IMG/VR virus record: IMGVR_UViG_3300045988_073134 | Length of the DNA stretch: 64,000 nucleotides | Origin: a virus | Strand: one strand, 5' to 3' | Part shown: in pieces, positions 17,624 through 57,410 of the stretch | Position numbering within the stretch: position 1 is the stretch's first letter | Layout: each line of letters starts with the position of its first letter | The notes under the pieces: generated by a model | Database searches by the model: none | What the model saw: the letters and a program-made list of their open reading frames with translations, nothing else | Told to the model about the DNA's origin: nothing | Translations under genes and position numbers: made by a program

Positions 17624-17660
17624 ACATATATAGTATAGTAAATCTCATCTATTTACTAAC
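17624..17660 (-). promoter_or_regulatory. Phage 'GTTAGTAAA / TATACTATATATGT' promoter motif, copy 1
   Basis: The plus strand reads acatatatagtatagtaaatctcatctatttactaac. AAGGAG of ORF 17432-17608 starts 1 nt downstream. Confidence 0.65.
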
Positions 17661-19555
17661 TACTTTTTAAATTGTTTTAATGTATCTTTTACTATTTTAT
17701 CATATGACTTCATCATCTCAGGGAAGTTTTCATATAGGAATTTTCTAGTCTCGGGTTGTGTCATATTCGAACTAATCTCAGCCCATAGTTCACTAGATAC
17801 TTCTATACAAGCTGACTCATATGCACTAATATTTCCATCTTGATTTCTTGTATAGTACTTAGCATCATGTCCCCATTTAGTCTTCACTGCTCCTGCCGAC
17901 ATCCCTTTAGCTGCATCTTGTAATGCTATTGTAAATACTTCATTATCATGTAAGAAGTCTGCAAATTTACCATTAACTAAAGCTGCTGGTGTATTTTCTA
18001 ATGTTTTCTTACCATGGAATTTTTCTTGTACCCATTTAGCCTGCCAGTTATTCATATCTCGCTCAAAAGCTTGAGCTAACCCAGTAGGTTTTATGGCGTT
18101 CTTTAATGTTATCTTAGAATACATAGGTTCACTACCTCCGGAGAACCTATACATTTTAAAATCATCGGGTGTTGCTTGGTCGTCTATCATATGTCCCCAC
18201 TCGTGGAATAATACGTCATATCTATGTTTTTCCCCAAACTGTATTCTAAGGTTTCGTTCATCTTTTAAGGACATATGTATCTTTTTATCAGTAGGTGAAT
18301 AAAATGCTCCACCAGTTGAATTTGTACGTTGGAACTTACCTATACTTAAGTACATATCTTGTACCTCTAATGGTGCTTGTTTTAACGCCTCTAATATACC
18401 TTCAGTAGTGTATTTTTTATTTGTTTTGGATATTTGTTTTTTAAGTGTTTCATGTAATTCAGTATATTTAGCTGCACGCTCTTCCTCAGTATAAATACCA
18501 CGTTGTTTAACTGCTTTCTTAATTGTCTTCTTAATTGATTTAGCTGGTTGCTTAGTTCCTCCAAGACCTTTATACTCAGGTATTTTGTTCATAGCACCGC
18601 TATTCTTCTCGCCATTCGCCCATGCTCTCATGTCTTTAGCAATCTCCTCAGGTGTTGCCTCTTTGCCATTTATCATCCATACTGGTTCTAGCCAACACGC
18701 TCCATTTGGATGGTCAAGTGGGATATCTTCTTTATCAACTATAAATATATGACCATCTCTCTCGTTACACAAATCACAAGTTCTACCTGCTTCGTGATTA
18801 CTATGCCATTTAACACCTCCCATGTATGGATTAACTTTTCTAGTATTAATTGTCTCTATCTGAGATTGATGTGTGATTGTAGTTCGTGCTAATCTTAATG
18901 ACTCATAGTCTAGTCCACTACTATATTTTCTAGCATAACCACTACCTAGTTTTTCTCTTATCTTATTTCTACTCCATGTATGATGCCCACCCATAGCAAA
19001 CTGTTTTAAGTTCTCAGCCATCTCAGCAGCTCCCATACCTTCTGCCATACAACTAGCTACTGCGTCCTCTATTTTTTCACCGCTAGTATTAGTGCAGCTC
19101 CATAGTCTTTTATCCAGTCCTTTTCTATCCTGGTATAGTTTTCCCCTTATTACTTGGTCTACTGTATCTGCATTAACTATGTCCACTAAAGTATCCACTT
19201 GGTCTTTAATTTGTTTATATCCATCTCCCATTAATAGTTGCATCATTTGTTTATTTATATCAGCTAAATCATTAGCAACCTTACTATTATATTTCTTAAC
19301 TACCTTTAGTAATTCGTCGTATATTTGCTGGCTGTATGCAGCAGTTAAGTTCTTTACAGCCTTACTATCTCCATAAGCATTTTTTATTCCTCTATTAATT
19401 GTATCCATATAAGCCTTTTTATAGACTTGTATTATCTGTTGTTGTTGATATTTAGTCAGCTCTCTTGGTTTATTTCTCAATTGTTTATTTAATGTTTCTA
19501 AGTACTCTAATCCGTTCTGTGTTTGTGTATCGCTAATAAACTGAGTCTTTGCCAT
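17660..19555 (-). CDS. Minor head protein, MuF/SPP1 gp7 family, with a roughly 300 aa C-terminal extension carrying an HExxH motif
   Basis: The MuF core is RTCDLCNERDGHIFIVDKEDIPLDHPNGACWLEPV. The C-terminal extension contains YDVLFHEWGHMIDD. Confidence 0.8.
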   Translation of the reverse strand: MAKTQFISDTQTQNGLEYLETLNKQLRNKPRELTKYQQQQIIQVYKKAYMDTINRGIKNAYGDSKAVKNLTAAYSQQIYDELLKVVKKYNSKVANDLADINKQMMQLLMGDGYKQIKDQVDTLVDIVNADTVDQVIRGKLYQDRKGLDKRLWSCTNTSGEKIEDAVASCMAEGMGAAEMAENLKQFAMGGHHTWSRNKIREKLGSGYARKYSSGLDYESLRLARTTITHQSQIETINTRKVNPYMGGVKWHSNHEAGRTCDLCNERDGHIFIVDKEDIPLDHPNGACWLEPVWMINGKEATPEEIAKDMRAWANGEKNSGAMNKIPEYKGLGGTKQPAKSIKKTIKKAVKQRGIYTEEERAAKYTELHETLKKQISKTNKKYTTEGILEALKQAPLEVQDMYLSIGKFQRTNSTGGAFYSPTDKKIHMSLKDERNLRIQFGEKHRYDVLFHEWGHMIDDQATPDDFKMYRFSGGSEPMYSKITLKNAIKPTGLAQAFERDMNNWQAKWVQEKFHGKKTLENTPAALVNGKFADFLHDNEVFTIALQDAAKGMSAGAVKTKWGHDAKYYTRNQDGNISAYESACIEVSSELWAEISSNMTQPETRKFLYENFPEMMKSYDKIVKDTLKQFKK

Positions 19556-19616
19556 ACCTCCACCTCCTATACAATTTATTCTATTAAAAAAGGAGGTTTA
19601 TTAACCCCCTTTACTG

Positions 19617-20048
19617 CTACTTAATGTAGCCTTTATATTTTTCTTTTAATACTTTACCACGTGCAGCTATATCACGTCTAAGTTCTGTTATTGTGTCTAA
19701 ATAATCTTTTTCCTTTTTATTTATTCTGTCCTGTATATCTTGTGGAACAAATCCATGTATTTTAAGTTGTTCTTTTACTTCATATCTATTGCTATATTGT
19801 ATTTTCTTTAGTTCTTCTAATAAATCTTGTAGTTGTGCCATCTCTCTACGTAGTTGATTGTCAGTTACAACTGTTACATATTGAGCTCCACATCTACATT
19901 CAAATCCTCTAATAATAATACAACCTTTTAATATAGCTAATTCTTTTTCTCTTGGATAAAACTCTCTGCCACACTTATCACATTTACATTTGAACTTCAA
20001 TTGTTTTTCCCCTCTACGTCCTTTTGTCCATCCACCTTGTTTACTCAT
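19617..20048 (-). CDS. Zinc-ribbon / coiled-coil protein, unknown function
   Basis: CKCDKCGREF...CRCGAQY followed by a coiled coil. ATG 20048 has GGAGG 9 nt upstream. It has its own motif-type promoter (20078-20114). Confidence 0.55.
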   Translation of the reverse strand: MSKQGGWTKGRRGEKQLKFKCKCDKCGREFYPREKELAILKGCIIIRGFECRCGAQYVTVVTDNQLRREMAQLQDLLEELKKIQYSNRYEVKEQLKIHGFVPQDIQDRINKKEKDYLDTITELRRDIAARGKVLKEKYKGYIK

Positions 20049-20077
20049 ATCAATCAACCTCCTACACTTTTTTATCT

Positions 20078-20114
20078 ACATATATAGTATAGAAAATTAG
20101 TTGTTTTTACTAAT
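20078..20114 (-). promoter_or_regulatory. Phage promoter motif, copy 2 (variant -35 ATTAGTAAA)
   Basis: acatatatagtatagaaaattagttgtttttactaat. It overlaps the portal 3-prime end, 30 nt upstream of ATG 20048. Confidence 0.6.
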
Positions 20115-21689
20115 AGAGCCATTTAAATCGGCCATACTATTTTGAGTCATGTTGACTTTATCCATCTCATCTAGGATTTCATCAAACTCTTTATCAGCTT
20201 CCTCAGCAGAACCAAATTCTCTAATGTAACTTTGTTTACTACGTACATTGGCTTCTACTTCTTTGATTGCTATTGTCTTAGTATCAACTTCATCATCAGG
20301 AATTGGATAGTTATGGTCTAAATCTAGACTTACTTTATATTGCATAGATTGTTTAATAGTTGGGTCTTCAGGATATAAATCACTCTTTAATACTATTTCT
20401 TCAATTAATCTTAATAGCCATACAATCGCCTCATCCCATGTTGCCCATTTTTCTTCACAACGAGTAATAAGGTCATCATATAACATACGTAGAGCTTTAC
20501 CACTGGCCACATTTACTAATGACTCAGGTAATGGTTGTTCCATGCATTCATACATATCTTTTTTCAATCTCTCAAGATAAGCATCGGCTGCTCCTTGGAA
20601 GGTGAACTCACTACCGACCTTTTGTACAGAGGCTTGTTTATAGCTACCATTAGAAGTACCCATTCCTAAAGATGTATCAGTTTTTATATCTAGTATTGCT
20701 CCTGGAGCAATAACAATTCCTTCAATAGAAGCACTATCTGCATCTATGAATGCAGTTTGGTCAAACATAGCAAATCTTAAACTGTCTCTGTAGTCACTGA
20801 CAGTCTTGTTATAGTCTATCTGCATATCCATTAAATCTTTGACATCACTACGTCCTCTAATATCACCTGTAAGGCCATCGTTAAATACAACAGTGCAAGG
20901 TATGCAGCTCAACCCAGTATTCCATTCACTACGTATTTCTACTTGTTGCATCTGTTGTTCATCTTGTTCCTCACCAGCTATACTACTATTTAATATGTTT
21001 GGTACTTCGGCATAGGCTATTGTGTTAGTACCATCTACTACCATATAAGTACACCAGCATTCTTCGCCTCTCATCTCATAAATCCATTTATGCCATCTTT
21101 GTTCGTTTTGTAGTTTACCCACTGTACTCTCATCTTGATATGCTATCTGAACTTTAATTAATTTGTCACAGTCGTTTGGGTCATATTCATATAAGAACTC
21201 AGGCATTGTATAAAATCTAAATTTGATAGGAGCATTGTCTATTGGATTGCCATAGTCATCTACATCTAACATTAATGCTAATAATACACGTTTACCTATA
21301 ACACAGTCCATAAATGCTTTACTGAACTTATTCCAAAACTTTCCATCATCTAATATTTTCTCAAAGGCAATACGTTTATCATCAACTAGTGTTGGGTCAG
21401 TACCATCTACACTCTTTACTACTATAGTAGGTGGTACACTGGTCATAAATCTTCCTTGTTTCTTTAGTAGTTTCTTTGTTAGGTTTCTTATCTCTCTTGT
21501 TGGTCTATAATCTCTGTCTTTTACTGCCCATAGTTGGCCAGTTCCATCTTCTAAATCATCTTCTAATTGTTCAGGTCTACCTTCATAGAATTCATAGTAA
21601 GCTTTTACTTGTTGAAGTTCTTCTAAAAATCTTCTATCTGTACTGTATAATCCTACTAAGGCTCTATCTATACTGTTATACAAACTCAT
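20097..21689 (-). CDS. Portal protein
   Basis: 530 aa, between the terminase and MuF genes, with an acidic C-terminus. The call rests on size and position. Confidence 0.75.
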   Translation of the reverse strand: MSLYNSIDRALVGLYSTDRRFLEELQQVKAYYEFYEGRPEQLEDDLEDGTGQLWAVKDRDYRPTREIRNLTKKLLKKQGRFMTSVPPTIVVKSVDGTDPTLVDDKRIAFEKILDDGKFWNKFSKAFMDCVIGKRVLLALMLDVDDYGNPIDNAPIKFRFYTMPEFLYEYDPNDCDKLIKVQIAYQDESTVGKLQNEQRWHKWIYEMRGEECWCTYMVVDGTNTIAYAEVPNILNSSIAGEEQDEQQMQQVEIRSEWNTGLSCIPCTVVFNDGLTGDIRGRSDVKDLMDMQIDYNKTVSDYRDSLRFAMFDQTAFIDADSASIEGIVIAPGAILDIKTDTSLGMGTSNGSYKQASVQKVGSEFTFQGAADAYLERLKKDMYECMEQPLPESLVNVASGKALRMLYDDLITRCEEKWATWDEAIVWLLRLIEEIVLKSDLYPEDPTIKQSMQYKVSLDLDHNYPIPDDEVDTKTIAIKEVEANVRSKQSYIREFGSAEEADKEFDEILDEMDKVNMTQNSMADLNGSISKNN

Positions 21690-24179: not shown

Positions 24180-24319
24180 AAGACCATCCTCCTATCACAA
24201 ATTTATATTAGTTATCAGTAACAATTATTAATGTAAGAATTCCTATTTTATGTCTTATTTTAGTACAATTAAAACTCATTTAGGACTTAATTATATAGGT
24301 TTATTGTTCTATTTGTATT

Positions 24320-24352
24320 AAAAAAGGGCAATTAATGTACTATTAATCACCC
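24320..24352 (-). terminator. Intrinsic terminator after the methyltransferase gene, marking the boundary before the late operon
   Basis: An 11-bp stem GGGUGAUUAAU/AUUAAUUGCCC. Both non-Watson-Crick pairs are G.U on the minus-strand RNA. It is followed by T6. Confidence 0.7.
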
Positions 24353-24366
24353 TATTTAGCTGTTAT

Positions 24367-26313: not shown

Positions 26314-26472
26314 TTATTTCTCCTCCTCATTTTTAATATCAATAAAATATTTAGTTGTATCTAAATTACTCAAACTTAGTAATATGTATTTTAAATCTTC
26401 TATTGTAGAATGTCTATATATAAAACAATTCATGCCATTCTCTTTATTTACTACTCTTACTGTATACTTCAC
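26314..26472 (-). CDS. Possible 52 aa ORF with a GTG start (not in the track)
   Basis: GGAGGCTAAATA precedes the GTG at 26472, which overlaps the upstream stop (TAGTG). My translation is (M)KYTVRVVNKENGMNCFIYRHSTIEDLKYILLSLSNLDTTKYFIDIKNEEEK. Confidence 0.35.
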   Translation of the reverse strand: MKYTVRVVNKENGMNCFIYRHSTIEDLKYILLSLSNLDTTKYFIDIKNEEEK

Positions 26473-26705
26473 TATTTAGCCTCCTTACTATTTAGTTCTT
26501 TTTCCATTGCCTCTACAGCCTCTTTAATATGTTGTATAGCTGCGAAGTCTGAGTAGTCCTTTAAGACTACATCTCTGTAGCCCATTAACAGGGCTACTAA
26601 TTCATATTGAGATATTAATGGTTCTTGATGTGGTGTTACTTTCATCTTTACAAACGCTTGAACCTTTCCATTAATTGGTTTTAATTTACTTTTTACTTTT
26701 AACAT
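26472..26705 (-). CDS. Small protein, possibly related to the local paralogue family
   Basis: ATG 26705 follows GGGAGGTACAAT. It is the first gene after motif copy 26739-26775. Confidence 0.5.
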   Translation of the reverse strand: MLKVKSKLKPINGKVQAFVKMKVTPHQEPLISQYELVALLMGYRDVVLKDYSDFAAIQHIKEAVEAMEKELNSKEAK

Positions 26706-26738
26706 ATTGTACCTCCCGTTATTTCCTTCATTCATCTT

Positions 26739-26775
26739 ACATATATAGTATAGAAATAATGCTCAATTTACTAAG
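26739..26775 (-). promoter_or_regulatory. Phage promoter motif, copy 3
   Basis: acatatatagtatagaaataatgctcaatttactaag, 34 nt upstream of ATG 26705. Confidence 0.6.
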
Positions 26776-26782
26776 TAGATAT

Positions 26783-27386: not shown

Positions 27387-27644
27387 TTACTTACCTCCAT
27401 TTAAACTTTTTATTTTTTTAGTGTTGTATTGTTGCTCACTTGTTTTGTAAGCAGTTAAAAAATTGTTATCTTTGTCTAATACTATTGTAGTCAAGTTCAT
27501 TGTGTATATTAACTTGTTGCTTTGTTTACCAGTTACTACATCTTTGATGCCAGTTTCTAATGCTTCTAATATCTTAGATTTGTTAAGGCCATGCTTTTGA
27601 TAACTATGAAGTAATTCCATCTTGCCAAATTTTATATCTAACAT
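27387..27644 (-). CDS. Hypothetical early protein
   Basis: 85 aa. First gene behind the sigma-A-type promoter 27682-27710, with the conserved leader. Confidence 0.55.
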   Translation of the reverse strand: MLDIKFGKMELLHSYQKHGLNKSKILEALETGIKDVVTGKQSNKLIYTMNLTTIVLDKDNNFLTAYKTSEQQYNTKKIKSLNGGK

Positions 27645-27681
27645 TTACCTCAACCCCTTTTTCTTATCTTTTATTAACTTA

Positions 27682-27710
27682 ATTATACATCTACTTGTAT
27701 AATTAATCAA
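27682..27710 (-). promoter_or_regulatory. Sigma-A-type (early) promoter A: TTGATT-N17-TATAAT with an extended TG
   Basis: The minus strand reads TTGATTAATTATACAAGTAGATGTATAAT. The -35 is at 27705-27710 and the -10 at 27682-27687. The spacer and -10 form the 10-bp inverted repeat TTAATTATAC/GTATAATTAA. The conserved leader TTAATAAAAGATAAG follows. Confidence 0.75.
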
Positions 27711-44429: not shown

Positions 44430-44430
44430 A

Positions 44431-45165: not shown

Positions 45166-45196
45166 TATTACACATCTCCTTTTTCTTATTTGTTAT

Positions 45197-45233: not shown

Positions 45234-45238
45234 CGAGT
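45212..45238 (-). terminator. Weak terminator hairpin whose loop carries the -35 element of promoter copy 8
   Basis: ACTCGG-TTAGTAAAAG-CCGAGT followed by T6. The stem is only 6 bp. Confidence 0.4.
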
Positions 45239-45250: not shown

Positions 45251-47605
45251 TTAAATTTCTATTCCCTCTCCATACCATCTATACGTACATTCAATATCAG
45301 TTTTCATTGGTATTTCAAATTTTCCGTCTACTACGTGTACCATAATGTACTCTAATATATCTCTCACCTCTTTGGCATTCTCTTTTGGACATACTCCTAA
45401 TACTTCATCATGCACCGGTATGATTAATTTATATCCCAATTCTTGTAGTCTTTTATTGTCATGAATTCTTATCATTGCTATCTTTGTCATATCAGCCGCA
45501 CTACCTTGTATTATACTGTTAACACATTGTCTCTGAGCATCTGCTATATACCCACCATTATCAACTATTTTATAACCTTCATCTTTGGCCAGTTGTTTAA
45601 TCTTCTCTTTTGCCTCTCTACCAAAGGCTCTATTCATTAATTTAAGATATTTGAAGTAAACTTCGTCACTCACCTCTGTATTAGCAGTTCCAGTAAAATC
45701 TAATGGATTAAATGTATCAACTAAGTTAGGATTCTCAACTGTTATTTCAATTGGGTCTAACTGCATATTTGGTAATCTTCTTTTTCTTCCCCACGCAGTC
45801 TCTACAAAACCATACTCTCTCGCATTCTCTTGAGCAAAGTCTACAAATCCTTTTACTTTTGGGAACTGATTGTAAAAATCGTTAATAACTTGCTGTGCCT
45901 CCTCTTTACTGATATTCATCTGCTCAGCTATACTTGTTACACCTCTACCATACATAATTCCTAGTAATATAGGTTTTACTGAACTTCTACGTTGTTTCCC
46001 TTCAGGGTTAACTGTACCGTCAGGTCTGAACTCTTTACACTCATCATATGGCATATTATACAACTTACTGGCTATAGTACTATATAAATCTTTACCGTCT
46101 AAATATGCTTGTATCATATGTTCGTCCTGACTCATATGTGCCAAACATCTCGGTTCTTGTTGTGAGAAGTCACCACCAATTATTACATTACCTGGGCCTG
46201 CAACAAACATCTGTCTAATATCATGTCCAGCATCTATTACAGTGCCATCACTTAATTTTTTAGTCCTACTTGGTATATTTTGTAAGTTTGGGTCACTACT
46301 ACTAAATCTACCAGTTTTAGCTCCATACTGATTAAAGTTTGCGTGTAACTTACCAGTTCTTTTGCTTATATGTTCAGGAATAGCATCAATATAAGTACTT
46401 AATAGTTTACTCATACCTCTATACTCTAAAATACTGTTAACTAATGGATGATGTAATTGTTTTAGCTGCTCTTCACCAACACTACGTTGTCCTTTCGGTG
46501 GCTCTAATTTTAAGACATCGTAGAATAATATTACTAACTGTTGATTACTTCCTATATTAATATTTACTTCTCCAAACTCACTTATTTTGTTATATTTATC
46601 AGGATGTTTTACTCTTAAGTCATTGAATACTCCTTGTTTATCAAGTTCAGATACTTGTGTATTGAACTCATTAAGTGCATTATCCATATACGTAGTATAT
46701 CGCTCTTTAAGTTGTTGTGCTAAGTTTGTATCTATGTCTACTCCTTGAGCCTCCATATCAAATACTACTTCTATTAATGGCATTTCTATATTTCTAAATA
46801 CATCTGCCACTCTCTCAAGTCCTTTTTTATAACAGTATTTTCCGTCTCTGTCCAAATACTCACGTTGAAATTCATATAATTCAAAAGTCATTATAGGGTC
46901 AAAGGCTGCATACATATAGCCAACATCGGGAGGTATTTTGTTGAACTCAATACCATTGAACAATTCACCAAATTTCCCTACCTCAGCACTCTCTCCTGTA
47001 CAATACTTTTGCCATAATACTTTTAAGCCATGAGGTTCATTTTCATTAAGTAAATACCCTCCAATTAATGTATCCCAGTATGGCACTATTTTTACTCCTA
47101 TCATCCAATATAGTATATGCATATCGAACTTAGCATTATGGAGTACAAATCTAATATTATTATCTGACCAAGATTGTATTAATTTCCTAACTACTTCAAT
47201 AGATACATTACTTTGTAATTCCATATTTGTCATATAACTTATATGTCCTACTGGAATATATATCCCTTTTTCATATGGAGTATAAAGACATATACCAGCT
47301 ACTTTTCCATCTATTCTATCAAGTCCGTTTGTCTCAGTATCTAATGCTACTATGCCATTGGCTACTACTTTTTTATCAAACTGTCTTAATCTATCTTCAC
47401 TAGTTACTAATTCCATTCTATCCAGTCTGTCAGCAAATATTTTAGTAGACATCATCTTTGCATATTCTACTTTATCCTTCATTGTCTTAGGTACTATTGA
47501 TGTTACTGGCGCTCTTTTATTTTTCTTTTTATTCAACACTTCTAACGCTTTTTTATTCGCTTCTTTATTATTACAACGACTAAATGTATCTTTAAACAAA
47601 CTCAT
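45251..47605 (-). CDS. polA: Family A DNA polymerase with a 3-prime-5-prime exonuclease domain
   Basis: Exo I is VALDTETNGL. The pol motifs are GGDFSQQEPR (A), SVKPILLGIMYG (B) and IPVHDEVL (C). Confidence 0.9.
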   Translation of the reverse strand: MSLFKDTFSRCNNKEANKKALEVLNKKKNKRAPVTSIVPKTMKDKVEYAKMMSTKIFADRLDRMELVTSEDRLRQFDKKVVANGIVALDTETNGLDRIDGKVAGICLYTPYEKGIYIPVGHISYMTNMELQSNVSIEVVRKLIQSWSDNNIRFVLHNAKFDMHILYWMIGVKIVPYWDTLIGGYLLNENEPHGLKVLWQKYCTGESAEVGKFGELFNGIEFNKIPPDVGYMYAAFDPIMTFELYEFQREYLDRDGKYCYKKGLERVADVFRNIEMPLIEVVFDMEAQGVDIDTNLAQQLKERYTTYMDNALNEFNTQVSELDKQGVFNDLRVKHPDKYNKISEFGEVNINIGSNQQLVILFYDVLKLEPPKGQRSVGEEQLKQLHHPLVNSILEYRGMSKLLSTYIDAIPEHISKRTGKLHANFNQYGAKTGRFSSSDPNLQNIPSRTKKLSDGTVIDAGHDIRQMFVAGPGNVIIGGDFSQQEPRCLAHMSQDEHMIQAYLDGKDLYSTIASKLYNMPYDECKEFRPDGTVNPEGKQRRSSVKPILLGIMYGRGVTSIAEQMNISKEEAQQVINDFYNQFPKVKGFVDFAQENAREYGFVETAWGRKRRLPNMQLDPIEITVENPNLVDTFNPLDFTGTANTEVSDEVYFKYLKLMNRAFGREAKEKIKQLAKDEGYKIVDNGGYIADAQRQCVNSIIQGSAADMTKIAMIRIHDNKRLQELGYKLIIPVHDEVLGVCPKENAKEVRDILEYIMVHVVDGKFEIPMKTDIECTYRWYGEGIEI

Positions 47606-47670
47606 TATATCCCTCCTATAAAAAATACCAGGTAATTACTACCTGGTATTAACTTGTTATTTATTTGTTA

Positions 47671-48354: not shown

Positions 48355-48388
48355 TTAACACCACTCCTTATTTTTTATTTATTTAACT

Positions 48389-48425
48389 TACATATATAGT
48401 ATAGAAAACCAGGTTATTTTACTAA
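48389..48425 (-). promoter_or_regulatory. Phage promoter motif, copy 9
   Basis: acatatatagtatagaaaaccaggttattttactaac, 35 nt upstream of the SSB gene. The -35 lies in a hairpin loop. Confidence 0.7.
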
Positions 48426-48434
48426 CCTGGTTTT
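48403..48434 (-). terminator. Terminator hairpin whose loop carries part of the -35 element of promoter copy 9
   Basis: ACCAGGTT-AGTAAAAT-AACCTGGT (8 bp) followed by TTTTC. Confidence 0.6.
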
Positions 48435-48442: not shown

Positions 48443-48802
48443 TTACATATTAAAATCATTTAGTGGCTCTTCGCTAAGTATTATATTAACCATTGTTTCG
48501 TATCCAAGCCAAGCTAATGTATCTACATGAACTTCTTCTTTAGGGTCTAAATATACTTTAGCTTCATTATATATGTCTAATATTTCACTTAAATGTTCTT
48601 TTACAAATTCTTTACACTCGTCGTAGTAAATTAAATTTGGTATTGCTGAATTAATGCCACCATGTTTATATACATTCATTAAATAATTTTGTACTTCTTC
48701 GTCTGTATCACATTTATCCAATACATCTTCAATTACATATGCCATTAAACCACTTTCAGTAGTATTTAACATTCTCCATAAATCTTTTTTAGTTACTGCC
48801 AT
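48443..48802 (-). CDS. Hypothetical acidic protein
   Basis: ATG 48802 lies 8 nt after AAGGAG. Confidence 0.5.
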   Translation of the reverse strand: MAVTKKDLWRMLNTTESGLMAYVIEDVLDKCDTDEEVQNYLMNVYKHGGINSAIPNLIYYDECKEFVKEHLSEILDIYNEAKVYLDPKEEVHVDTLAWLGYETMVNIILSEEPLNDFNM

Positions 48803-48817: not shown

Positions 48818-49003
48818 TTATAAATATAAATCATATAAATCTTGTTCAGCTTCTTCTACAGTTTTATATGAACATCCATTAACTAATTCACCAACTGTAC
48901 CAAAGTTATCACTGATTTTATTTTGTCTATAAATGTAATATTTATTATCCATCCAATGTTGTTCAATATAGAATACACCTTTTTTACTTTCATATGTTTT
49001 CAT
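48818..49003 (-). CDS. Hypothetical early protein
   Basis: 61 aa. First gene behind the sigma-A-type promoter 49043-49071. Confidence 0.5.
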   Translation of the reverse strand: MKTYESKKGVFYIEQHWMDNKYYIYRQNKISDNFGTVGELVNGCSYKTVEEAEQDLYDLYL

Positions 49004-49042
49004 CTAACTTCAACTCCTCTTTTCTTATCTTTTATTAACATA

Positions 49043-49071
49043 ATTATACATCTACTTATATAATTATACAA
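49043..49071 (-). promoter_or_regulatory. Sigma-A-type (early) promoter B: TTGTAT-N17-TATAAT with an extended TG
   Basis: TTGTATAATTATATAAGTAGATGTATAAT, with the same palindromic architecture and leader TTAATAAAAGATAAG. It drives 48818-49003. Confidence 0.7.
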
Positions 49072-51406: not shown

Positions 51407-51439
51407 AAAAAGTCTTACTATATATAGTATAGTAAGACT
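51407..51439 (-). terminator. 12-bp-stem palindrome after the sigma factor gene, overlapping the -10 of promoter copy 10
   Basis: agtcttactata-tatag-tatagtaagact. On the minus strand it is followed by TTTTAAAT. Confidence 0.4.
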
Positions 51440-51454
51440 TCGGTTTTTACTAAC
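51418..51454 (-). promoter_or_regulatory. Phage promoter motif, copy 10
   Basis: ctatatatagtatagtaagacttcggtttttactaac, 33 nt upstream of nrdJ. The -10 lies inside the 12-bp-stem palindrome 51411-51439. Confidence 0.6.
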
Positions 51455-52052
51455 TTAATAAATAATTTAATTTCTTTTGAAGTGCACGTCTAATTCCAAC
51501 AACACCTGCAGTACTAACTCCAATTTCCCTTGCCATGTGAGATTGTTGTAAGTCACACATATGGTCAAGTGCTACCATACAATATTGTAATTGTTTTTCA
51601 GATAAATCTTCCTTATGTACTAAGTCAGATAATTCAACTTTGTCATATTCATCTTCAACACTTGCTTCCTCCCATCTATCTTCAGTTGTCTCATAACAAC
51701 TCATTGGAGTACATTGGTCGCCGTTGTTCGCTTTACGTTTATTACTTGCATTACTTTGTGTTAGAGTTCTAAGAGCATTCTTGATATAAACACATATCAT
51801 AGAAGTTAATTTACCACTAGTACTCTTTTCAGCATCAAAGTTTTCAAAACATTTCCATATTTGTTCTAATATTACACTTGTAACTTCATCATCACTTACA
51901 CCAACGTATTTTTTACTTACTTGATAAAATAGACTCTTATTTGTCTCAAATACATATGCAATAACTTCATCATGAAAACCTGCTTGGTAATCTCTAACTA
52001 ATTCCTCATCAGTGTGTTTTAAACCATAAACTTTAACTACATCTTTAAACAT
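51450..52052 (-). CDS. Sigma-70 family sigma factor (phage-encoded), expressed from a sigma-A-type promoter
   Basis: 200 aa. Region 2-like VTSVILEQIWKCFENFD...SMICVYIKNALR and region 4 HTH QQSHMAREIGVSTAGVVGIRRALQKK. Confidence 0.6.
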   Translation of the reverse strand: MFKDVVKVYGLKHTDEELVRDYQAGFHDEVIAYVFETNKSLFYQVSKKYVGVSDDEVTSVILEQIWKCFENFDAEKSTSGKLTSMICVYIKNALRTLTQSNASNKRKANNGDQCTPMSCYETTEDRWEEASVEDEYDKVELSDLVHKEDLSEKQLQYCMVALDHMCDLQQSHMAREIGVSTAGVVGIRRALQKKLNYLLS

Positions 52053-52101
52053 ACATCATTCCCCCTGAACTGTTTTTTTTATTTACTTTTTATACTTATA
52101 A

Positions 52102-52130
52102 TTATATAGACCTTTATATAATTAATCAAC
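52102..52130 (-). promoter_or_regulatory. Sigma-A-type (early) promoter C: TTGATT-N17-TATAAT, upstream of the phage sigma factor gene
   Basis: TTGATTAATTATATAAAGGTCTATATAAT. The inverted repeat is TAATTATATA/TATATAATTA. It lies about 50 nt upstream of ATG 52052. Confidence 0.7.
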
Positions 52131-53282: not shown

Positions 53283-53438
53283 TTACCCCTCCTGTACTTT
53301 ATATAATAAATCAAATAGTGGGTCTAGGTGCTCAAATACTAAATCACCTTCATCCACTGCTTTATTTATGAGCCATTTTAATTCTCTTACTAAATCTTTT
53401 TCAATTTCCATTTCTCTTATTTTTCTACCAGTTAACAT
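53283..53438 (-). CDS. 51 aa hypothetical protein (not in the track)
   Basis: AAAGGAGTTGATTAT precedes the ATG. The protein is MLTGRKIREMEIEKDLVRELKWLINKAVDEGDLVFEHLDPLFDLLYKVQEG. Confidence 0.45.
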   Translation of the reverse strand: MLTGRKIREMEIEKDLVRELKWLINKAVDEGDLVFEHLDPLFDLLYKVQEG

Positions 53439-53451
53439 ATAATCAACTCCT

Positions 53452-53488
53452 TTAAATATATTATATTATATTTCTATAATTTACTAAC
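53452..53488 (-). promoter_or_regulatory. Degenerate copy of the phage promoter motif (intact -35 GTTAGTAAA, -10 region ATATAATATAT)
   Basis: The plus strand reads ttaaatatattatattatatttctataatttactaac, 14 nt upstream of ATG 53438 (small ORFs plus primase operon). Confidence 0.35.
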
Positions 53489-53499
53489 TAACAATTTTA

Positions 53500-53541: not shown

Positions 53542-53596
53542 AAAAAAGGGGAGTTATATTATGAGTAGAAGAATGTGCCTCCACATTTCCTCTACA
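53500..53596 (-). ncRNA. Candidate small RNA of about 95 nt (orphan promoter 11 to terminator)
   Basis: No ORF or RBS lies between the promoter and the terminator. There is a 5-prime hairpin GTAGAGGAAATGTG-GAGG-CACATTCTTCTAC and a single-stranded ACTCCCCTTTTTT segment before the terminator. Confidence 0.3.
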
Positions 53597-53630
53597 TATA
53601 TAGTATAGAAAAAAGTGCCATTTTACTAAC
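53594..53630 (-). promoter_or_regulatory. Phage promoter motif, copy 11 ('orphan': followed by a terminator, not a gene)
   Basis: acatatatagtatagaaaaaagtgccattttactaac. It abuts the dnaB stop. The next element downstream is terminator 53500-53541. Confidence 0.65.
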
Positions 53631-54925
53631 TAAAAAACATCAGTAACGTCATTTATTTTATTATTATTTCTAAGTGGTAATTGTGGCTCAATCTCAGCTC
53701 CATCTTCCAGTTGTTCAGTCACAAAGGAAAATATACCGTTGTCTATGTCCCACACATATAATAATTGCTTATTATTTTCTCCATATCTATTCTTAGTTAT
53801 TTTAAGACTCAATCCCGCTTTAGTCTGTACTAAAGAAATTACTCTACTGCTATTCTGAGCAATACCATCACTCTCGCCTATGTCTGCTAATTCAGGATTC
53901 TCAGGTTTATCAATGTCCGCCTTGTTTCTATTTGCTTGAGCATCAACTATAATTGGAATACTAAATTCAGTACTCATATTAAATAAATCTTGTGCAATAT
54001 GAGTGTACTGAGTTCTTGTTTGGTCTCCCTTTGCTCGTCTCTCATCTTCCATTAATGATATTTGGTCAATACCAACTATGTCTGGTTTATACTCTTTTAT
54101 AAGAGCACGTAGTTTGCTCACTGTTAACATTTTTCCACCAAAGTCTACTGGTGTTACTACTATATATGGAGGTAATTCTTTATTGTTCTCTAAGTCATTA
54201 ATATATTGAGTATAATCTCCATCTGCTATTGTACCTCTCATTAATTGAGAGTTTGTGTAGTTCATACCTAAAGTATCATTTCTATACGCCACTTGTAATA
54301 CTCCCATCTCACCACTATAATGTAATACTTTTTTATGTTGTTTATTTGCCTCTGTTAGAAACTTTTGTAATAGCCAAGATTTACCTTGGTTTACTCTACC
54401 AACTATAGTCACTAATTCTTCACCTGGTAGCCATCCATTAAGTATCTTATCTAGTTCAGGTAAGCCACTACCAATTCCTAACATACCGCCTTTAGCACGT
54501 TTATTCTCTAAGTCCTTTATTTTCTCATCAACCATGTTGTTAATATTTACACCATTACTTTGAACAGTTTGGTCAAGTAGTCGTTGTGCCCTTGTGACTA
54601 TATGTTGTAAGCCATCAAAAGCATTCTGTTCTAATACATCACCACTAGCTTGAAATAGTGCCACTCCTTGGTCAAATAGATAGTTTTCTTTTAGATTATA
54701 AATAATATATTTTAGTGGCTCTAATACTTCAACAACATCAAAGTCAGGAAATTTTCCCATGAATGTTTCCCAGTCAGGTACTTTTCCATAAGTTCTAAAG
54801 TGAGTACATATAAAATCAAACTCATCTTGATAGTCTTTAAAATACTCTTTTGTTATCCCTTGACTCGTATATGCGTCTAAATTATTATTATTCAGTATAT
54901 CATTTATAGCTTGTAACTGTACCAT
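53630..54925 (-). CDS. dnaB: Replicative DNA helicase (DnaB-like)
   Basis: 431 aa. GLPELDKILNGWLPGEELVTIVGRVNQGKSW (Walker A), VGIDQISLM, and a RecA-like C-terminal domain. Confidence 0.85.
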   Translation of the reverse strand: MVQLQAINDILNNNNLDAYTSQGITKEYFKDYQDEFDFICTHFRTYGKVPDWETFMGKFPDFDVVEVLEPLKYIIYNLKENYLFDQGVALFQASGDVLEQNAFDGLQHIVTRAQRLLDQTVQSNGVNINNMVDEKIKDLENKRAKGGMLGIGSGLPELDKILNGWLPGEELVTIVGRVNQGKSWLLQKFLTEANKQHKKVLHYSGEMGVLQVAYRNDTLGMNYTNSQLMRGTIADGDYTQYINDLENNKELPPYIVVTPVDFGGKMLTVSKLRALIKEYKPDIVGIDQISLMEDERRAKGDQTRTQYTHIAQDLFNMSTEFSIPIIVDAQANRNKADIDKPENPELADIGESDGIAQNSSRVISLVQTKAGLSLKITKNRYGENNKQLLYVWDIDNGIFSFVTEQLEDGAEIEPQLPLRNNNKINDVTDVF

Positions 54926-55638
54926 TATATTCTCACCCCTTTTGGTTTCCTTTGTGTTTTGTTGGTGAATTCAACTATCGTGCTTGTATCTAATATTCTA
55001 CTCGACAATCTACCTCCAATATTATCATCTAATTGCTCATCAATAACATTACTTGTAAATATGTTAGCTTTGTTATTGACTATACGCGGATTGATTAAGC
55101 TGAATAATATTTGATGGTCATATTCTTTTAACTTAGTTACTCCTATGTCATCCCACACTATTAAGTCTACAGTTGGTATTAATTTCTCCATTTCTTCTAA
55201 TCTTATATCAGGTCGTTTTATCGCATTTCTTTTGGCCATTAAGAACTCATCTACATTTATAAATAGTCCTCTACAACGAGTGCCATTACCATTCCAAATA
55301 TTACTAAAATATTTACTCATCAACTTTATTGCCCACGTAGTCTTGCCATTACCAAAGTAAGGACTATATAGATACAAGTTACATCCATCATGTACAAAGT
55401 CATTGATATTTTCTTTTATACTATTAAGATACTCATACTTTTTAATATCATTACCTGCACTCAACTTCAAATCCTCAGGCTGTTGTTTATTTGGTGGAAT
55501 ATTAGCTAAGTTAACTAAATAATAATATTGAAAATATACACTACAGCTACAATTACAATCTTTTGTGCCATACATAGGGCAGTTAGTTCTAAACCAACAT
55601 TTATCTTTAATAAATTTAAATTCTTTTACATCATACAT
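54925..55638 (-). CDS. dnaC: DnaC/IstB-like AAA+ helicase loader with an N-terminal Cys-rich region
   Basis: Walker A SPYFGNGKTTWA, Walker B LIVWDDIG, and the N-terminal CWFRTNCPMYGTKDCNCSC. Confidence 0.7.
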   Translation of the reverse strand: MYDVKEFKFIKDKCWFRTNCPMYGTKDCNCSCSVYFQYYYLVNLANIPPNKQQPEDLKLSAGNDIKKYEYLNSIKENINDFVHDGCNLYLYSPYFGNGKTTWAIKLMSKYFSNIWNGNGTRCRGLFINVDEFLMAKRNAIKRPDIRLEEMEKLIPTVDLIVWDDIGVTKLKEYDHQILFSLINPRIVNNKANIFTSNVIDEQLDDNIGGRLSSRILDTSTIVEFTNKTQRKPKGVRI

Positions 55639-55653
55639 ATGTAAAACCTCCTT

Positions 55654-55690
55654 TTATCTATAGTATAGTAAAAAATGCACTTTTACTAAC
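55654..55690 (-). promoter_or_regulatory. Phage promoter motif, copy 12
   Basis: ttatctatagtatagtaaaaaatgcacttttactaac, 16 nt upstream of the dnaC-like ATG 55638. Confidence 0.6.
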
Positions 55691-55692
55691 AT

Positions 55693-55730
55693 AAAAAAAC
55701 CCTCGATACCAAAGGGGGTAGGTACCGAGG
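55693..55730 (-). terminator. Intrinsic terminator downstream of orphan promoter copy 13
   Basis: A 10-bp stem CCTCGGTACC/GGTATCGAGG (G.U on the minus RNA), a C-rich loop TACCCCCTTT, then T7. Confidence 0.7.
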
Positions 55731-55789
55731 TAAAAAACAAATAGATATTAAGGGTTGAGTATATAAGGAGGTTTCCCATATTCCTTACA
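55693..55789 (-). ncRNA. Candidate small RNA of about 95 nt (orphan promoter 13 to terminator)
   Basis: No ORF. It contains ACCTCCTTA and a CCCCC terminator loop. Confidence 0.3.
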
Positions 55790-55823
55790 TATATAGTATA
55801 GAAAAAATCATTGTTTTACTAAC
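55787..55823 (-). promoter_or_regulatory. Phage promoter motif, copy 13 (orphan)
   Basis: acatatatagtatagaaaaaatcattgttttactaac. It is followed after about 60 nt by terminator 55693-55730. Confidence 0.65.
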
Positions 55824-55831
55824 TTTAAAAT

Positions 55832-55865
55832 AAAAAAATCCCAACGGGTTACCAAGCCGTTGGGA
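55832..55865 (-). terminator. Intrinsic terminator downstream of orphan promoter copy 14
   Basis: A perfect 9-bp stem TCCCAACGG/CCGTTGGGA, then T7. Confidence 0.75.
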
Positions 55866-56005
55866 TATATTTGGGGATTGTTAATAATTTCTTATTAGTT
55901 GGTTATATGAAGTTAATCACCTACTCTCTTATTATACACTATTGGGTCATATAAGAAAATAATAAAAATTAAAATAATATAAAAATAATTTAATAATAAG
56001 TTACA
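55832..56005 (-). ncRNA. Candidate non-coding transcript of about 170 nt (orphan promoter 14 to terminator), extremely AT-rich at its 5-prime half
   Basis: The longest ATG or GTG ORFs on this strand are 3-5 codons. An internal TGTATAAT (55931-55938) could be an extra sigma-A-type -10. Confidence 0.25.
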
Positions 56006-56039
56006 TATATAGTATAGAAAAATTGTGTAGTTTACTAAC
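56003..56039 (-). promoter_or_regulatory. Phage promoter motif, copy 14 (orphan)
   Basis: acatatatagtatagaaaaattgtgtagtttactaac. It is followed by about 140 nt with no ORF, then terminator 55832-55865. Confidence 0.65.
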
Positions 56040-56307
56040 TAAAAAATAATTTTATTTCTTCTTTATCTAATTTTATTACATATATATTATCTTTAATTAT
56101 AAACTTATTTCTAGTACCTCCCTTTTTAATAGGTTCTCTAAAATTATCATTTTTAATATGTGTTCTAATACAACTATTAAAACTTTTTAATTGAGTAGCA
56201 TTTAATCTATAACAACTATGTTTAATACTATTAATAATATGTCTAATATCATTACATAAAAAATAATTGTCAGGTGTAACTACTAAATAATTATTAGTAC
56301 TTATCAT
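56035..56307 (-). CDS. Hypothetical basic protein (90 aa)
   Basis: ATG 56307 follows AAAGGAGGAATTTAT. The longer track ORF (to 56355) would run through a 5-prime UTR hairpin. Confidence 0.4.
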   Translation of the reverse strand: MISTNNYLVVTPDNYFLCNDIRHIINSIKHSCYRLNATQLKSFNSCIRTHIKNDNFREPIKKGGTRNKFIIKDNIYVIKLDKEEIKLFFS

Positions 56308-56335
56308 ATAAATTCCTCCTTTTTTAGTTGAGAGA

Positions 56336-56358
56336 ATTATGCACTTTCGGTGCATAAT
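56336..56358 (-). promoter_or_regulatory. 5-prime UTR hairpin (9-bp stem, CGAAA loop) upstream of ORF 56035-56307
   Basis: The minus strand reads ATTATGCAC-CGAAA-GTGCATAAT, with no U-tract. It lies between promoter copy 15 and the RBS. Confidence 0.5.
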
Positions 56359-56411
56359 AATCTTCCACCGACCGATTCTTTATTTATTTTCAGTCTAACT
56401 AATTTATTTAT

Positions 56412-56448
56412 TTATATATAGTATAGTAAAAAAGTCGATTTTACTAAC
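56412..56448 (-). promoter_or_regulatory. Phage promoter motif, copy 15
   Basis: ttatatatagtatagtaaaaaagtcgattttactaac, 105 nt upstream of ATG 56307. Confidence 0.6.
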
Positions 56449-56451
56449 TCC

Positions 56452-56473
56452 AAATTTAAAAAATTTTAAATTT
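56452..56473. repeat. A/T-only perfect palindrome between tandem promoter copies 16 and 15
   Basis: aaatttaaaa-aa-ttttaaattt. Confidence 0.6.
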
Positions 56474-56494
56474 TTTTCATCTTAAAAAAGGTTT

Positions 56495-56531
56495 TTTTAT
56501 ATAGTATAGAAAATTTGTTCGTTTTACTAAC
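56495..56531 (-). promoter_or_regulatory. Phage promoter motif, copy 16 (tandem with copy 15)
   Basis: ttttatatagtatagaaaatttgttcgttttactaac, directly after terminator 56541-56568. Confidence 0.55.
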
Positions 56532-56540
56532 TTGAGTATA

Positions 56541-56568
56541 AAAAAAATAGAAGGATTAAATCCTTCTA
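56541..56568 (-). terminator. Intrinsic terminator overlapping the stop codon of the DnaD-like gene
   Basis: TAGAAGGA-TTTAA-TCCTTCTA, then T7. The TAA stop lies in the loop. Confidence 0.65.
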
Positions 56569-56915
56569 TTAGTTGTGTCATGTTTATAGTCATTCTCAAC
56601 TTGATAACTAGCACGGTTACTACGTGGCATTGGTTGATTGACATAGTTTTCCATTTTATTACTGAATAGAGTTTGAGGTCTAATATACATTTCCATATTA
56701 GTTCCTCCCCACTCAGCAACTTTTACATCTATAACATATTTAAAGTCCTCTATTGTATATCCTTCTCTCAAACGAGCTGAGATGTATTTGACAGTATTTT
56801 TAGCATCGTGTTTATATTTAGTTCCTGCTCTAGTATTTAAATAGTCTACAATTTCTTCTATTAGTTTATTTTGTACAGTAGGTACTTTTTTTACATTGAA
56901 TCCAGGAAGTGCCAT
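56556..56915 (-). CDS. DnaD-like / phage replisome-organizer C-terminal domain protein
   Basis: YLNTRAGTKYKHDAKNTVKYISARLREGYTIEDFKYVIDVKVAEW...YIRPQTLFSNKMENYVNQ matches the conserved phage DnaD-type C-terminal domain pattern. Confidence 0.65.
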   Translation of the reverse strand: MALPGFNVKKVPTVQNKLIEEIVDYLNTRAGTKYKHDAKNTVKYISARLREGYTIEDFKYVIDVKVAEWGGTNMEMYIRPQTLFSNKMENYVNQPMPRSNRASYQVENDYKHDTTNRRI

Positions 56916-57298
56916 TATTTCACCCTCTTTACTCTTAAAGTTTTATATGTTTTCTCTCTGTATGCAGGTGCTATGTCATCTGTACTTATTATTCCACCAT
57001 ACATTAATTCTTCCAGCTTATCTTCATCTATAATATATGTTGGCACTAGACAATCCATTATCTCAGGTTTTTCTTGTGCCATATTTAGTAATATCTGAAT
57101 AAGTGTATCATCATCTAATTCACTCTTTGTATTAGTAGTATAAGAAACTTTTATACCGTCGTATTCACCTTTAGTAATTCCCTGCTCATCTAACATAGTT
57201 TTAGTACTCTTAATTAAGTTATTTTCACGCTCTTTATTCTTTTTATTCAGTTCTTTTATCTCAGCCAGTTCAGCTAATAAAACCCTTAATTCCTTCAT
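56915..57298 (-). CDS. Hypothetical coiled-coil protein
   Basis: 127 aa, stop/start coupled to the DnaD-like gene. Confidence 0.5.
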   Translation of the reverse strand: MKELRVLLAELAEIKELNKKNKERENNLIKSTKTMLDEQGITKGEYDGIKVSYTTNTKSELDDDTLIQILLNMAQEKPEIMDCLVPTYIIDEDKLEELMYGGIISTDDIAPAYREKTYKTLRVKRVK

Positions 57299-57373
57299 TT
57301 TTTACCCTCCTTAAGTAATTAATCTATGAGCCCTATAAAACCTATTTTAAGTAGGTCATATGAGCTCATATCA

Positions 57374-57410
57374 CTATATATAGTATAGAATTTATCTATT
57401 ATTTACTAAG
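57374..57410 (-). promoter_or_regulatory. Phage promoter motif, copy 17
   Basis: ctatatatagtatagaatttatctattatttactaag. It overlaps the 3-prime end of 57392-57670, 76 nt upstream of ATG 57298. Confidence 0.55.

Follow-up and report, generated by a model that had tools for sequence, protein, structure and literature searches.

Co-oriented copies of a bipartite, promoter-like element accompany two sigma-70-family genes in an uncharacterised group of gut siphoviruses

RESULTS

The window and its genes

The DNA analysed here, referred to below as the window, is a stretch of 64,000 nucleotides from an IMG/VR virus record (IMGVR_UViG_3300045988_073134). Our subject is a bipartite element that recurs in it many times in a single orientation, together with two sigma-70-family genes, one of which may encode the protein that reads the element. 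The substantial open reading frames (ORFs) of the 64-kb window are all on the minus strand, and the GC content is ~31%. Genes for terminase, portal, major head protein, tape measure and Dit, found by profile searches, form a siphovirus structural module; Pfam searches reveal a replication module made up of family-A DNA polymerase, ribonucleotide reductase, DnaB-type helicase, DnaC-like loader, primase, RecA and SNF2 helicase. Megablast of an 8-kb stretch against INPHARED revealed no near relative among deposited phage genomes. The DNA polymerase shares 47% identity with its counterparts in Streptococcus phage Dp-1 and Clostridium phage phiCTP1, and IMG/VR holds dozens of near-identical contigs of 65-71 kb as well as more distant relatives from pig and human gut assemblies. 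The phage is a lytic gut phage, a ~70-kb siphovirus related to Dp-1 and phiCTP1, and it belongs to an uncharacterised phage group. An amidase/endolysin gene (61085-61966) is followed by a terminator (61078-61046) and then by the first host-type promoter. From this order it follows that the window is a permuted view of the ~70-kb genome, a circular permutation in which the late region leaves at coordinate 1 and re-enters at 64000. The early region, starting near 61032, is only ~3.6 kb long (61032-57400).

A bipartite element in 19 copies

We refer to the multi-copy class as M-class and to a coexisting class of host sigma-A type as E-class. The first-pass annotation, made from the sequence alone, had listed 17 M-class copies and a degenerate one. 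All 17 are present on the minus strand where it placed them, apart from a shift of one nucleotide in the copy given as 48389, whose block starts at 48390. The degenerate copy at 53452 is also real (53449-53489), but one more copy, at 31804-31844, had been missed, which brings the total to 19. To score the copies we built a 41-nt position weight matrix (PWM) from the 17 listed sites and applied it to both strands and to 20 shuffles. The 17 sites reach 33.5-51.7 bits, the copy at 31804 25.3 bits and that at 53449 23.3 bits. The next best scores are -0.3 (minus strand) and -3.8 (plus strand), the best score in the 20 shuffles is 6.5, and the weakest M-class copy is separated from the next best site by >23 bits. 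The invariant length and single orientation claimed for the element hold for the full set: the gap between the blocks is fixed, and 19 of 19 copies lie on the minus (coding) strand, with none on the plus strand.

The copies share the pattern (a)GTTAGTAAA-N14-TATACTATATAT(GTAAG), with the same spacing in every copy. Their consensus consists of aGTTAGTAAA, five variable bases, a T-rich run (ttTTtC), TATACTATATAT and, usually, GTAAG. From TTAG[TC][AG]A to TATACT the gap is exactly 15 nt in 18 of the 19 copies, corresponding to TTAGTA-16-TATACT; the copy at 53449 has TATAAT in the same register as the TATACT of the other 18. The -10 hexamer TATACT is extended by ATATAT. Among 236 unique sites from IMG/VR relatives, the information resides in TTAG.AAA and TATACT and not in the spacer. 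Word counts in the window are skewed by strand, both for TTAGTAAA (25 minus, 2 plus) and for TATACTAT (20 minus, 6 plus), which indicates that the blocks are not independent words scattered through the genome.

As the first-pass annotation had it, the copies are intergenic or reach over the 3' end of the gene before them. Only the newly added copy at 31804 departs from this, being placed within a 107-aa ORF, 118 nt from its end. Transcripts are predicted to begin with the G or A of GTAAG, 7-9 nt past the hexamer, which would put the start 9-225 nt ahead of the next start codon. The copies occur every 0.1-5 kb through the region of replication, nucleotide metabolism and recombination, and a few are found ahead of small genes within the structural region. 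Two blocks with a variable spacer of 16-18 bp, a -10 block with A at -11 and T at -7, and co-oriented positions upstream of transcription units are all features of sigma-70-type promoters, and the M-class copies share them. This bipartite anatomy and the co-oriented copies ahead of genes agree with the original assignment of the element to a sigma-type and not a T7-type promoter.

A second class of host type

Reading all intergenic regions of the window yielded five E-class copies, all on the minus strand, with the core TTGATT-17-TATAAT and often a TG extension. In full, the E-class element is TTGATTAATTATAT-N8-(TG)TATAATTA, followed by a shared 5' leader, TTAATAAAAGATAAG...GGAGTTG. Most copies are preceded by a terminator and an A/T-rich stretch. 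The copy at 60990-61032 opens the early region, right behind the endolysin terminator, and the one at ~59988-59950 has the sigma-A consensus and the shared leader. The third (52087-52129) lies directly upstream of the gene that we call sigma1. It had been described as a consensus sigma-A promoter, and a host-type TTGATT-17-TATAAT is indeed found there, although with a 10/12 match to sigma-A it is only near-consensus. The remaining two are located at 49029-49071 (TTGTAT-17-TGTATAAT), upstream of the small genes 48818-49003 and 48443-48802, and at 27668-27710 (TTGATT-17-TGTATAAT), upstream of 27387-27644.

The E-class is as tightly conserved as the M-class, its 5' untranslated region included. 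The earlier argument that the M-class is conserved more tightly than sigma-A requires is therefore weak: because the E-class is equally uniform, tightness of conservation does not by itself point to a special polymerase. What counts instead is the different -35 block, for the M-class consensus (GTTAGTAAA-N14-TATACT, 19 copies) is distinct from that of the five coexisting E-class copies.

The structural operons follow terminators, and neither an E-class nor an M-class promoter stands ahead of them. Upstream of the small-terminase operon, a terminator hairpin is followed by CTATATAATTAA, in the window at 24180-24366 (minus), in L140 at 20070-20345 and in L142 at 20105-20328 (L numbers denote related loci). 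This single-copy sequence is invariant in lineages A, B and C defined below, and is thus kept across lineages whose M-class boxes differ; TTACATTAAT occurs twice. The region is a candidate late promoter or regulatory site.

Two sigma-70-family genes

The first-pass annotation had assigned two genes to the sigma-70 family, and both assignments stand. The product of sigma1 (51450-52052, minus; 200 aa) is highly diverged. It has no sigma match in Pfam and only a weak match to phrog_351 in PHROGs (E=1.3e-7). A search of 1.84 billion cluster representatives returned 215 relatives of ~200 aa, i.e. ~215 clusters at 50% identity. A family profile built from 50 members matches WhiG (E=4.3e-9), with separate region-2 and region-4 stretches, as well as the SigE N-terminal domain (2.6e-6) and FliA (1e-4), whereas Pfam sigma domains are seen in only 3 of the 50. 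Foldseek with the AlphaFold model of sigma1 returned almost only sigma factors among the matches, and the N-terminal domain of this predicted model superposes on region 2 of sigmaE bound to -10 DNA with a TM score of 0.82. In addition, hhalign links sigma1 to the sigma2 family (E=3.5e-5). These profile, fold and hhalign matches establish that sigma1 is a diverged sigma-70-family protein. The family is seen only in phage and metagenome contigs and is almost invisible to Pfam.

The second gene, sigma2 (34725-35351, minus), encodes a 208-aa SigF/SigH-like protein that is recognised directly by Pfam (Sigma70_r2, 5.9e-8) and by PHROGs (phrog_351, 9e-23). Its family profile finds structures of SigF, SigB and SigH type (PDB SigF, 1.7e-6). 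The two genes differ in their promoter context. In all four lineages checked by sequence (window, L144, L146 and phiCTP1), sigma1 lies behind an E-class promoter. The sigma2 gene comes after RecA; in the window it closes the operon behind the M-class copy at 37016.

Covariation of the -35 block with the sigma1 helix

Related loci were gathered through homologues of sigma2, sigma1 and the polymerase, and their intergenic regions were read. A bipartite element of the same design, multi-copy and co-oriented, is present in every lineage with sigma1; its -10 block is TATA-rich, and its -35 block differs. The -35 block is GTTAGTAAA in lineages A (the window and L144) and B (L140 and L386-L390; sigma1 64-67% identical), (C/G)TTAACA in lineages C and D (L142 and L143), GTTAACA in lineages E and H (L146, L166, L169 and L241; sigma1 35-40% identical), AACTCAAGAA in lineage F (L171, GC 44%) and ACTTTAATTTTT in lineage G (phiCTP1 and L173). 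The -10 block in relatives is TATATT or TATAAT, with TATAAT in lineages E and F and TGATATAAT in phiCTP1. The E-class of the lineages examined keeps TTG-17-TATAAT, and TTG is present in every E-class -35 block and in no M-class -35 block.

The recognition helix of the C-terminal helix-turn-helix (HTH) of sigma1 is STAGVVGIRR in lineages A and B, SRAGANV[IV]VK in E and H, DPSAVNYFQK in F and TSAGVKYIKN in G. On the coding strand of the 41 loci with STAGVVGIRR (599 kb, sigma1 identity down to 64%) there are 397 sites of TTAGTA type and 0 of TTAACA type, and on that of the 15 loci with SRAGANV[IV]VK there are 91 of TTAACA type and 0 of TTAGTA type. DPSAVNYFQK goes with five sites of AACTCAAGAA type, and TSAGVKYIKN (phiCTP1) with 18 of CTTTAAT type, the box being ACTTTAATTTTT. 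In other words, four sigma1 helix types correspond one-to-one to four -35 blocks, with no exception in ~880 kb, even if the types are few and phylogenetically confounded. Contigs with the most diverged sigma1 that still has STAGVVGIRR (64-67% identity) were fetched as a test, and all of them carry GTTAGTAAA boxes.

The recognition helix of sigma2 behaves differently. In lineages C, D and E, all with TTAACA, it reads SSAYVSRVVKE, SPTCVCRVIKK and SRSHVSNTVS, respectively, and that of lineage C is nearly the window's SPAYVSRVVKD despite the different box. Since three sigma2 helices go with one box and a near-identical helix goes with different boxes, the sigma2 helix does not track the box. In L145 and L147, which are more distant relatives by polymerase, the syntenic positions hold no sigma gene, and the intergenic regions show no multi-copy element of a comparable kind. 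The early-to-middle cascade suggested by the first-pass annotation is strengthened by the covariation of the -35 block with the sigma1 helix.

Units behind the M-class copies

In the direction of transcription, the first M-class copy after the early region is at 57371-57411 (ACTTAGTAAA...TATACTATATAT AG; PWM 33.5). It overlaps the 3' end of 57392-57670 and stands ahead of the gene 56915-57298, with its predicted start 77 nt from the ATG. Five copies are clustered in 55651-56532, where there is little coding sequence. The copy at 56492-56532 (44.8) comes directly after a terminator (56570-56546), and that at 56409-56449 (45.5) is upstream of the gene 56035-56307, 106 nt from its ATG. The copies at 56000-56040 (48.8) and 55784-55824 (51.1) precede non-coding units, and the one at 55651-55691 (39.9) lies 17 nt from the ATG of the DnaC-like loader gene (54925-55638), which is followed by that of the DnaB helicase (both by Pfam).

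Further along are the copy at 53591-53631 (50.6), also ahead of a non-coding unit, and the variant copy at 53449-53489 (GTTAGTAAA-N14-TATAATATATTT; 23.3), which is upstream of 53283-53438 and the primase gene and is conserved in L144. At the 3' end of sigma1, the copy at 51415-51455 (43.1) is located upstream of the ribonucleotide reductase gene, 34 nt from the ATG. It is followed by copies at 48387-48427 (49.2), at 45194-45234 (41.9; after the DNA polymerase gene and upstream of 7-deazaguanine genes) and at 42771-42811 (46.4; upstream of 41829-42752). The top-scoring copy (37016-37056; 51.7) precedes an operon of a 158-aa ORF (36512-36988), RecA (Pfam) and sigma2; in relatives, a dCMP deaminase occupies the position of the ORF. 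A GTTAGCGAA variant at the 3' end of sigma2 (34697-34737; 34.8) would drive a resolvase-like gene (34355-34687, by PHROG).

The weaker copy at 31804-31844 (TTTAGCAAA-N14-TATACTATATAT; 25.3) has the same spacing as the others and an equivalent site in L140. The copy at 30633-30673 (39.2) is 15 nt from the ATG of 30374-30622, and the one at 26736-26776 (CTTAGTAAA; 48.0) is upstream of 26472-26705 and a methyltransferase operon. Two copies lie over the 3' ends of structural genes. One, at the end of the portal gene (20075-20115; ATTAGTAAA; 42.2), is followed by a single gene (19617-20048) and a terminator; the other, at the end of the head-morphogenesis gene (17621-17661; 47.9), is followed by the small genes 17432-17608 and 17051-17419.

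A subset of the M-class copies is fused to the terminator of the preceding unit, so that the T-run of the terminator is at the same time the spacer of the promoter. In the copies at 37016, 42771, 45194 and 48387 (-19.4, -18.5, -16.2 and -21.1 kcal/mol, respectively), the -35 block makes up the terminator loop and reaches into the stem of a GC-rich hairpin; at 48387 the stem arms are CCAGGTTA and TAACCTGG, followed by a T-run. In the copies that immediately follow each of the two sigma genes, it is the -10 block that is enclosed in a hairpin followed by a T-run, of 10 bp at 34697 (-21.7 kcal/mol) and 11 bp at 51415 (-16.5 kcal/mol). Among 250 unique sites from relatives, a stable hairpin spans the -35 block in 20%, versus ~3% of controls with shuffled flanks, and the -10 block is inside a hairpin in ~19%. 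The fusion of promoter and terminator recurs in diverged lineages. A terminator of similar appearance is located just before the ribosome-binding site of the polymerase gene (47624-47650, minus); its loop, TAGTAAT, resembles the -35/terminator module of the M-class without a -10 block (PWM -2.0), and it may be a decayed M-class copy or a terminator only.

No ORF lies directly behind the copies at 53591, 55784 and 56000, which are followed by short units ending in intrinsic terminators. Two of these, 53595-53503 (~93 nt; terminator 53540-53512) and 55788-55693 (~96 nt; terminator 55715-55700), both on the minus strand, are paralogous non-coding units of ~95 nt with no Rfam match. Both open with a 5' hairpin whose first nucleotide is exactly the predicted +1 G, continue with an A/U-rich linker and end in an intrinsic terminator, with the next promoter directly behind. 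The unit 53595-53503 is conserved in L144. The third unit (56004-55833, minus) is AT-rich and ~170 nt long, contains an internal extended -10-like sequence, TGTATAAT, and ends in a strong terminator near 55870-55835.

Other features of the genome and its relatives

A set of genes for 7-deazaguanine (queuosine-precursor) synthesis, comprising QueC, QueD/PTPS, QueE and GTP cyclohydrolase I, is found downstream of the polymerase gene at 42826-45165 in the window and at 629-3520 in L140, as in Dp-1-like phages. It suggests that the phage DNA contains modified guanines. Lineages of L142 type have QueT and a short-chain dehydrogenase in its place. The polymerase gene itself is uninterrupted in the window (45251-47605). 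In L144 (7770-10885), L146 (7761-10894) and likewise in L145 and L147, it is split by an insert of ~0.8 kb that carries an HNH/NUMOD homing-endonuclease gene and has structured-looking, intron-like flanks.

Other repeated elements were seen in two of the related loci. In L171, a third element, (T)GAATATTA(C/T)..TATA(T/A)A, occurs three times just upstream of the sigma1 gene (9780-9960) and may be the early promoter class of that lineage. In L147 (GC 51%), a conserved host-type promoter, TTTACAAACC-N9-TGTAGTAyAAT, is present in at least two copies (5877-5983 and 19268-19362).

Rfam and tRNA scans of the window gave no matches. Neither the M-class motif nor sigma1 relatives were found in 185,579 species-representative bacterial and archaeal genomes, so that this search provides no clue to the host and no prophage form.

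DISCUSSION

A putative sigma cascade and its alternatives

Taken together, the anatomy, orientation and placement of the M-class element indicate that it is very probably a promoter. It seems probable, too, that its use depends on a phage sigma factor, and sigma1 has roughly even chances of being that factor. We consider reasonably likely, as a whole, a cascade that leads from host sigma-A to sigma1, from sigma1 to the M-class as "middle" promoters, and from these to sigma2. According to this scheme, host RNA polymerase with host sigma-A would first use the five E-class promoters, one of which would express sigma1. The latter would replace sigma-A on the host core polymerase and switch on the M-class units, its region-4 helix reading GTTAGTAAA and its region 2 reading TATACT. 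The M-class would then express the genes of replication, nucleotide metabolism and recombination, three small non-coding units, a few small genes of the structural region and sigma2. Being encoded at the end of an M-class operon, sigma2 would be a middle product. It is probably a late-gene sigma, and would more probably serve the late structural operons.

Several points weigh against this scheme. The start sites of the M-class and its dependence on a sigma factor are what we infer for a phage whose host is uncultured. The AlphaFold model of sigma1 is of low confidence (mean predicted local distance difference test score of 60). The pairing of helix and box comprises only four independent helix types, and part of the association is expected from shared descent, because diverged lineages differ everywhere. 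Moreover, the pairing does not include sigma1 of lineages C and D, which would be the most discriminating given their TTAACA box and, in C, a sigma2 helix like that of the window; a protein search with the C-terminus of the L142 polymerase led to other lineages only, and a metagenome scan with the lineage-C motif produced single chance matches with no sigma homologue. A search for a multi-copy class of late promoters for sigma2 resulted in one conserved candidate (ACCTATATAATTAA, 24287-24300), with a copy number not above chance. Finally, the -10 block is sigma-A-like, and in phiCTP1 the M-type -10 is a perfect extended -10. Host sigma-A could therefore open the M-class promoters, either alone or with a phage activator on the upstream block.

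The first of these two possibilities, that M-class copies are ordinary strong host sigma-A promoters with a good -10 and a weak -35 block, operating with no phage factor and made uniform by recent cassette duplication or recombination, is in our opinion unlikely. To its credit, the -10 block matches TATAAT at 5 of 6 positions (in relatives it can be a perfect TATAAT or TGnTATAAT), and the spacing falls within the sigma-A range. However, a separate class with a proper TTG -35 block, and often with a TG extension, exists alongside in these genomes. Conservation of the M-class -35 block equals that of the -10 block, but only 3 of its 6 positions agree with TTGACA; in all lineages it is without the G of TTG, and it varies by lineage, while the E-class retains the universal consensus. 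Nor are the copies recent duplicates, since their spacers differ.

The second possibility is sigma appropriation, in which host sigma-A would bind the -10 block and an early phage DNA-binding protein would bind the GTTAGTAAA box near -31 and bring in the polymerase, similarly to T4 MotA/AsiA; the binder could be sigma1 acting as an activator or another early protein. The layout is like that of T4 middle promoters, with a conserved 9-mer near -31, a sigma-A-like -10 block and no TTGACA, and 7 of 50 sigma1-family members score as HTH proteins of LuxR/GerE type. Nonetheless, we regard this as rather unlikely. Besides its C-terminal HTH, sigma1 has a region-2 domain, which an activator would not need. 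Also, no DNA-binding regulator was annotated among the E-promoter-driven proteins scanned against PHROGs, with no search aimed at MotA/AsiA.

If a phage sigma is indeed responsible, it could be sigma2 instead of sigma1. The sigma2 protein is the clearer sigma factor, with its Pfam Sigma70_r2 domain; its region 2 is faintly similar to SPO1 gp34 (39% over 41 columns, E=0.0014), and the motif resembles the gp34-dependent consensus. By hhalign, however, the gp34 likeness falls short of significance (probability 17%), and the two proteins are assigned to different PHROGs. The location of sigma2 within an M-class operon would make it necessary for its own synthesis, and many M-class units hold replication genes that are required earlier. 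In addition, the recognition helix of sigma2 does not follow the -35 block across lineages A to E. Taking these observations into account, we find it rather improbable that sigma2 reads the M-class.

That the motif is not primarily a promoter but an RNA-level signal (a terminator-loop motif or a processing site), a recombination or module boundary, or an operator, is very improbable despite the excess of hairpins over the -35 block, because most copies are free of hairpins and yet have both blocks at the exact spacing, the information lies in two DNA blocks ~1.5 turns apart and not in a pairing pattern, the copies are always ahead of genes, and the downstream non-coding units start at the predicted +1.

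Implications

If the scheme of a sigma1-driven middle class holds, an abundant group of gut phages, found in pig and human metagenomes, runs an SPO1-like temporal cascade with a sigma1 so diverged that annotation pipelines miss it; its phiCTP1 homologue is called a response regulator. The present analysis also supplies genomes without a cultured host with a promoter map that covers early, middle and candidate late units, and it delimits a directly testable sigma family of ~215 clusters (50% identity). The understanding of phage transcription as such is unchanged. Matched pairs of sigma factors and promoters with different -35 specificities are possible orthogonal expression parts for low-GC Firmicutes. 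It is tempting to go further and to view the sigma1 family as a natural set of orthogonal sigma/-35-box pairs (four specificities so far) and the promoter-terminator fusion as functional, not mere compaction; for example, the fusion could tie the termination of one unit to a sigma1-dependent restart at the next. This extended view we hold to be quite improbable.

Comparison with known systems

T7-type promoters also come in many near-identical, co-oriented copies with conservation that extends into the initiation site. They are, however, contiguous over ~23 bp, whereas the M-class is bipartite with a variable spacer, and no single-subunit RNA polymerase was found by Pfam or PHROGs among the large ORFs of the window that were scanned, ~6 kb of the genome lying outside the window. 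In the middle promoters of T4, a MotA box at -30 is combined with a sigma-70 -10 block through sigma appropriation by AsiA/MotA (scheme in PMC11598898). The window phage shares with T4 an upstream box that replaces the -35 hexamer, a host-like -10 block and a class that would be turned on by an early phage product. The difference is that sigma1 has a sigma fold (region 2 and region 4) and not the MotA fold.

A closer parallel is provided by phiEco32 and Salmonella phage 7-11, in which a phage sigma of gp36 type redirects the host core polymerase and has its own middle and late promoter consensus (PMC8948821, PMC4331800). As in the window, a lytic phage encodes a diverged sigma-70-family protein and has a tight, multi-copy class of phage promoters beside early promoters of sigma-70 type. 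However, these phages infect Enterobacteria, their virion type and sigma family are unrelated, and they have a single sigma compared with two in the window phage.

In the SPO1 cascade, gp28 serves middle promoters and gp33/gp34 serve late promoters. The window phage resembles SPO1 in that phage sigma-like proteins would redirect the host core to bipartite phage promoters, the first sigma being expressed from host-type early promoters and the second later. The likeness to the SPO1 late -35 block that the first-pass annotation had pointed out is real in register: aGTTAGt-N17-TATACT of the window shares GTTAG and the spacing with the SPO1 late consensus, CGTTAGA-N17-19-GATATT (quoted in PMC3601020). 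It is a resemblance and not membership, with the -35 block matching at 5 of 7 positions, a 17-bp spacer and the -10 block at 4 of 6. It does not extend to the proteins. Orthology to gp34 was rejected for both sigma1 (hhalign probability 0.2%) and sigma2 (17%), with gp34 assigned to phrog_1025 and the window sigmas to phrog_351, and a search of the window phage for a gp33 homologue found none. Furthermore, the motif of the window would drive middle (replication) genes while that of SPO1 drives late genes, and the window phage is a ~70-kb siphovirus, not a herellevirus.

The closest cultured relative with the same module is phiCTP1 (NC_014457). A literature search for the M-class motif or phiCTP1 promoters returned nothing relevant, the name phiCTP1 being found, within the set of papers searched, only in endolysin, virome and review papers. 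The gene order of phiCTP1 is syntenic with that of the window, running from the helicase loader, helicase and primase through gp43 (the sigma1 homologue, 26% identity) to the reductase and polymerase, with a second sigma, gp61, further downstream. It likewise has two promoter classes. CTTGcAT-17-TATAAT, of sigma-A type, stands ahead of gp43, and ACTTTAATTTTT...TGATATAATAaATGTAA occurs in at least eight copies, all co-oriented. What differs is the -35 block and the sigma1 helix, and gp43 is annotated as a "putative response regulator". Judging from these parallels, what we describe is most likely an already known strategy, that of SPO1- or phiEco32-like cascades, found in a new phage group.

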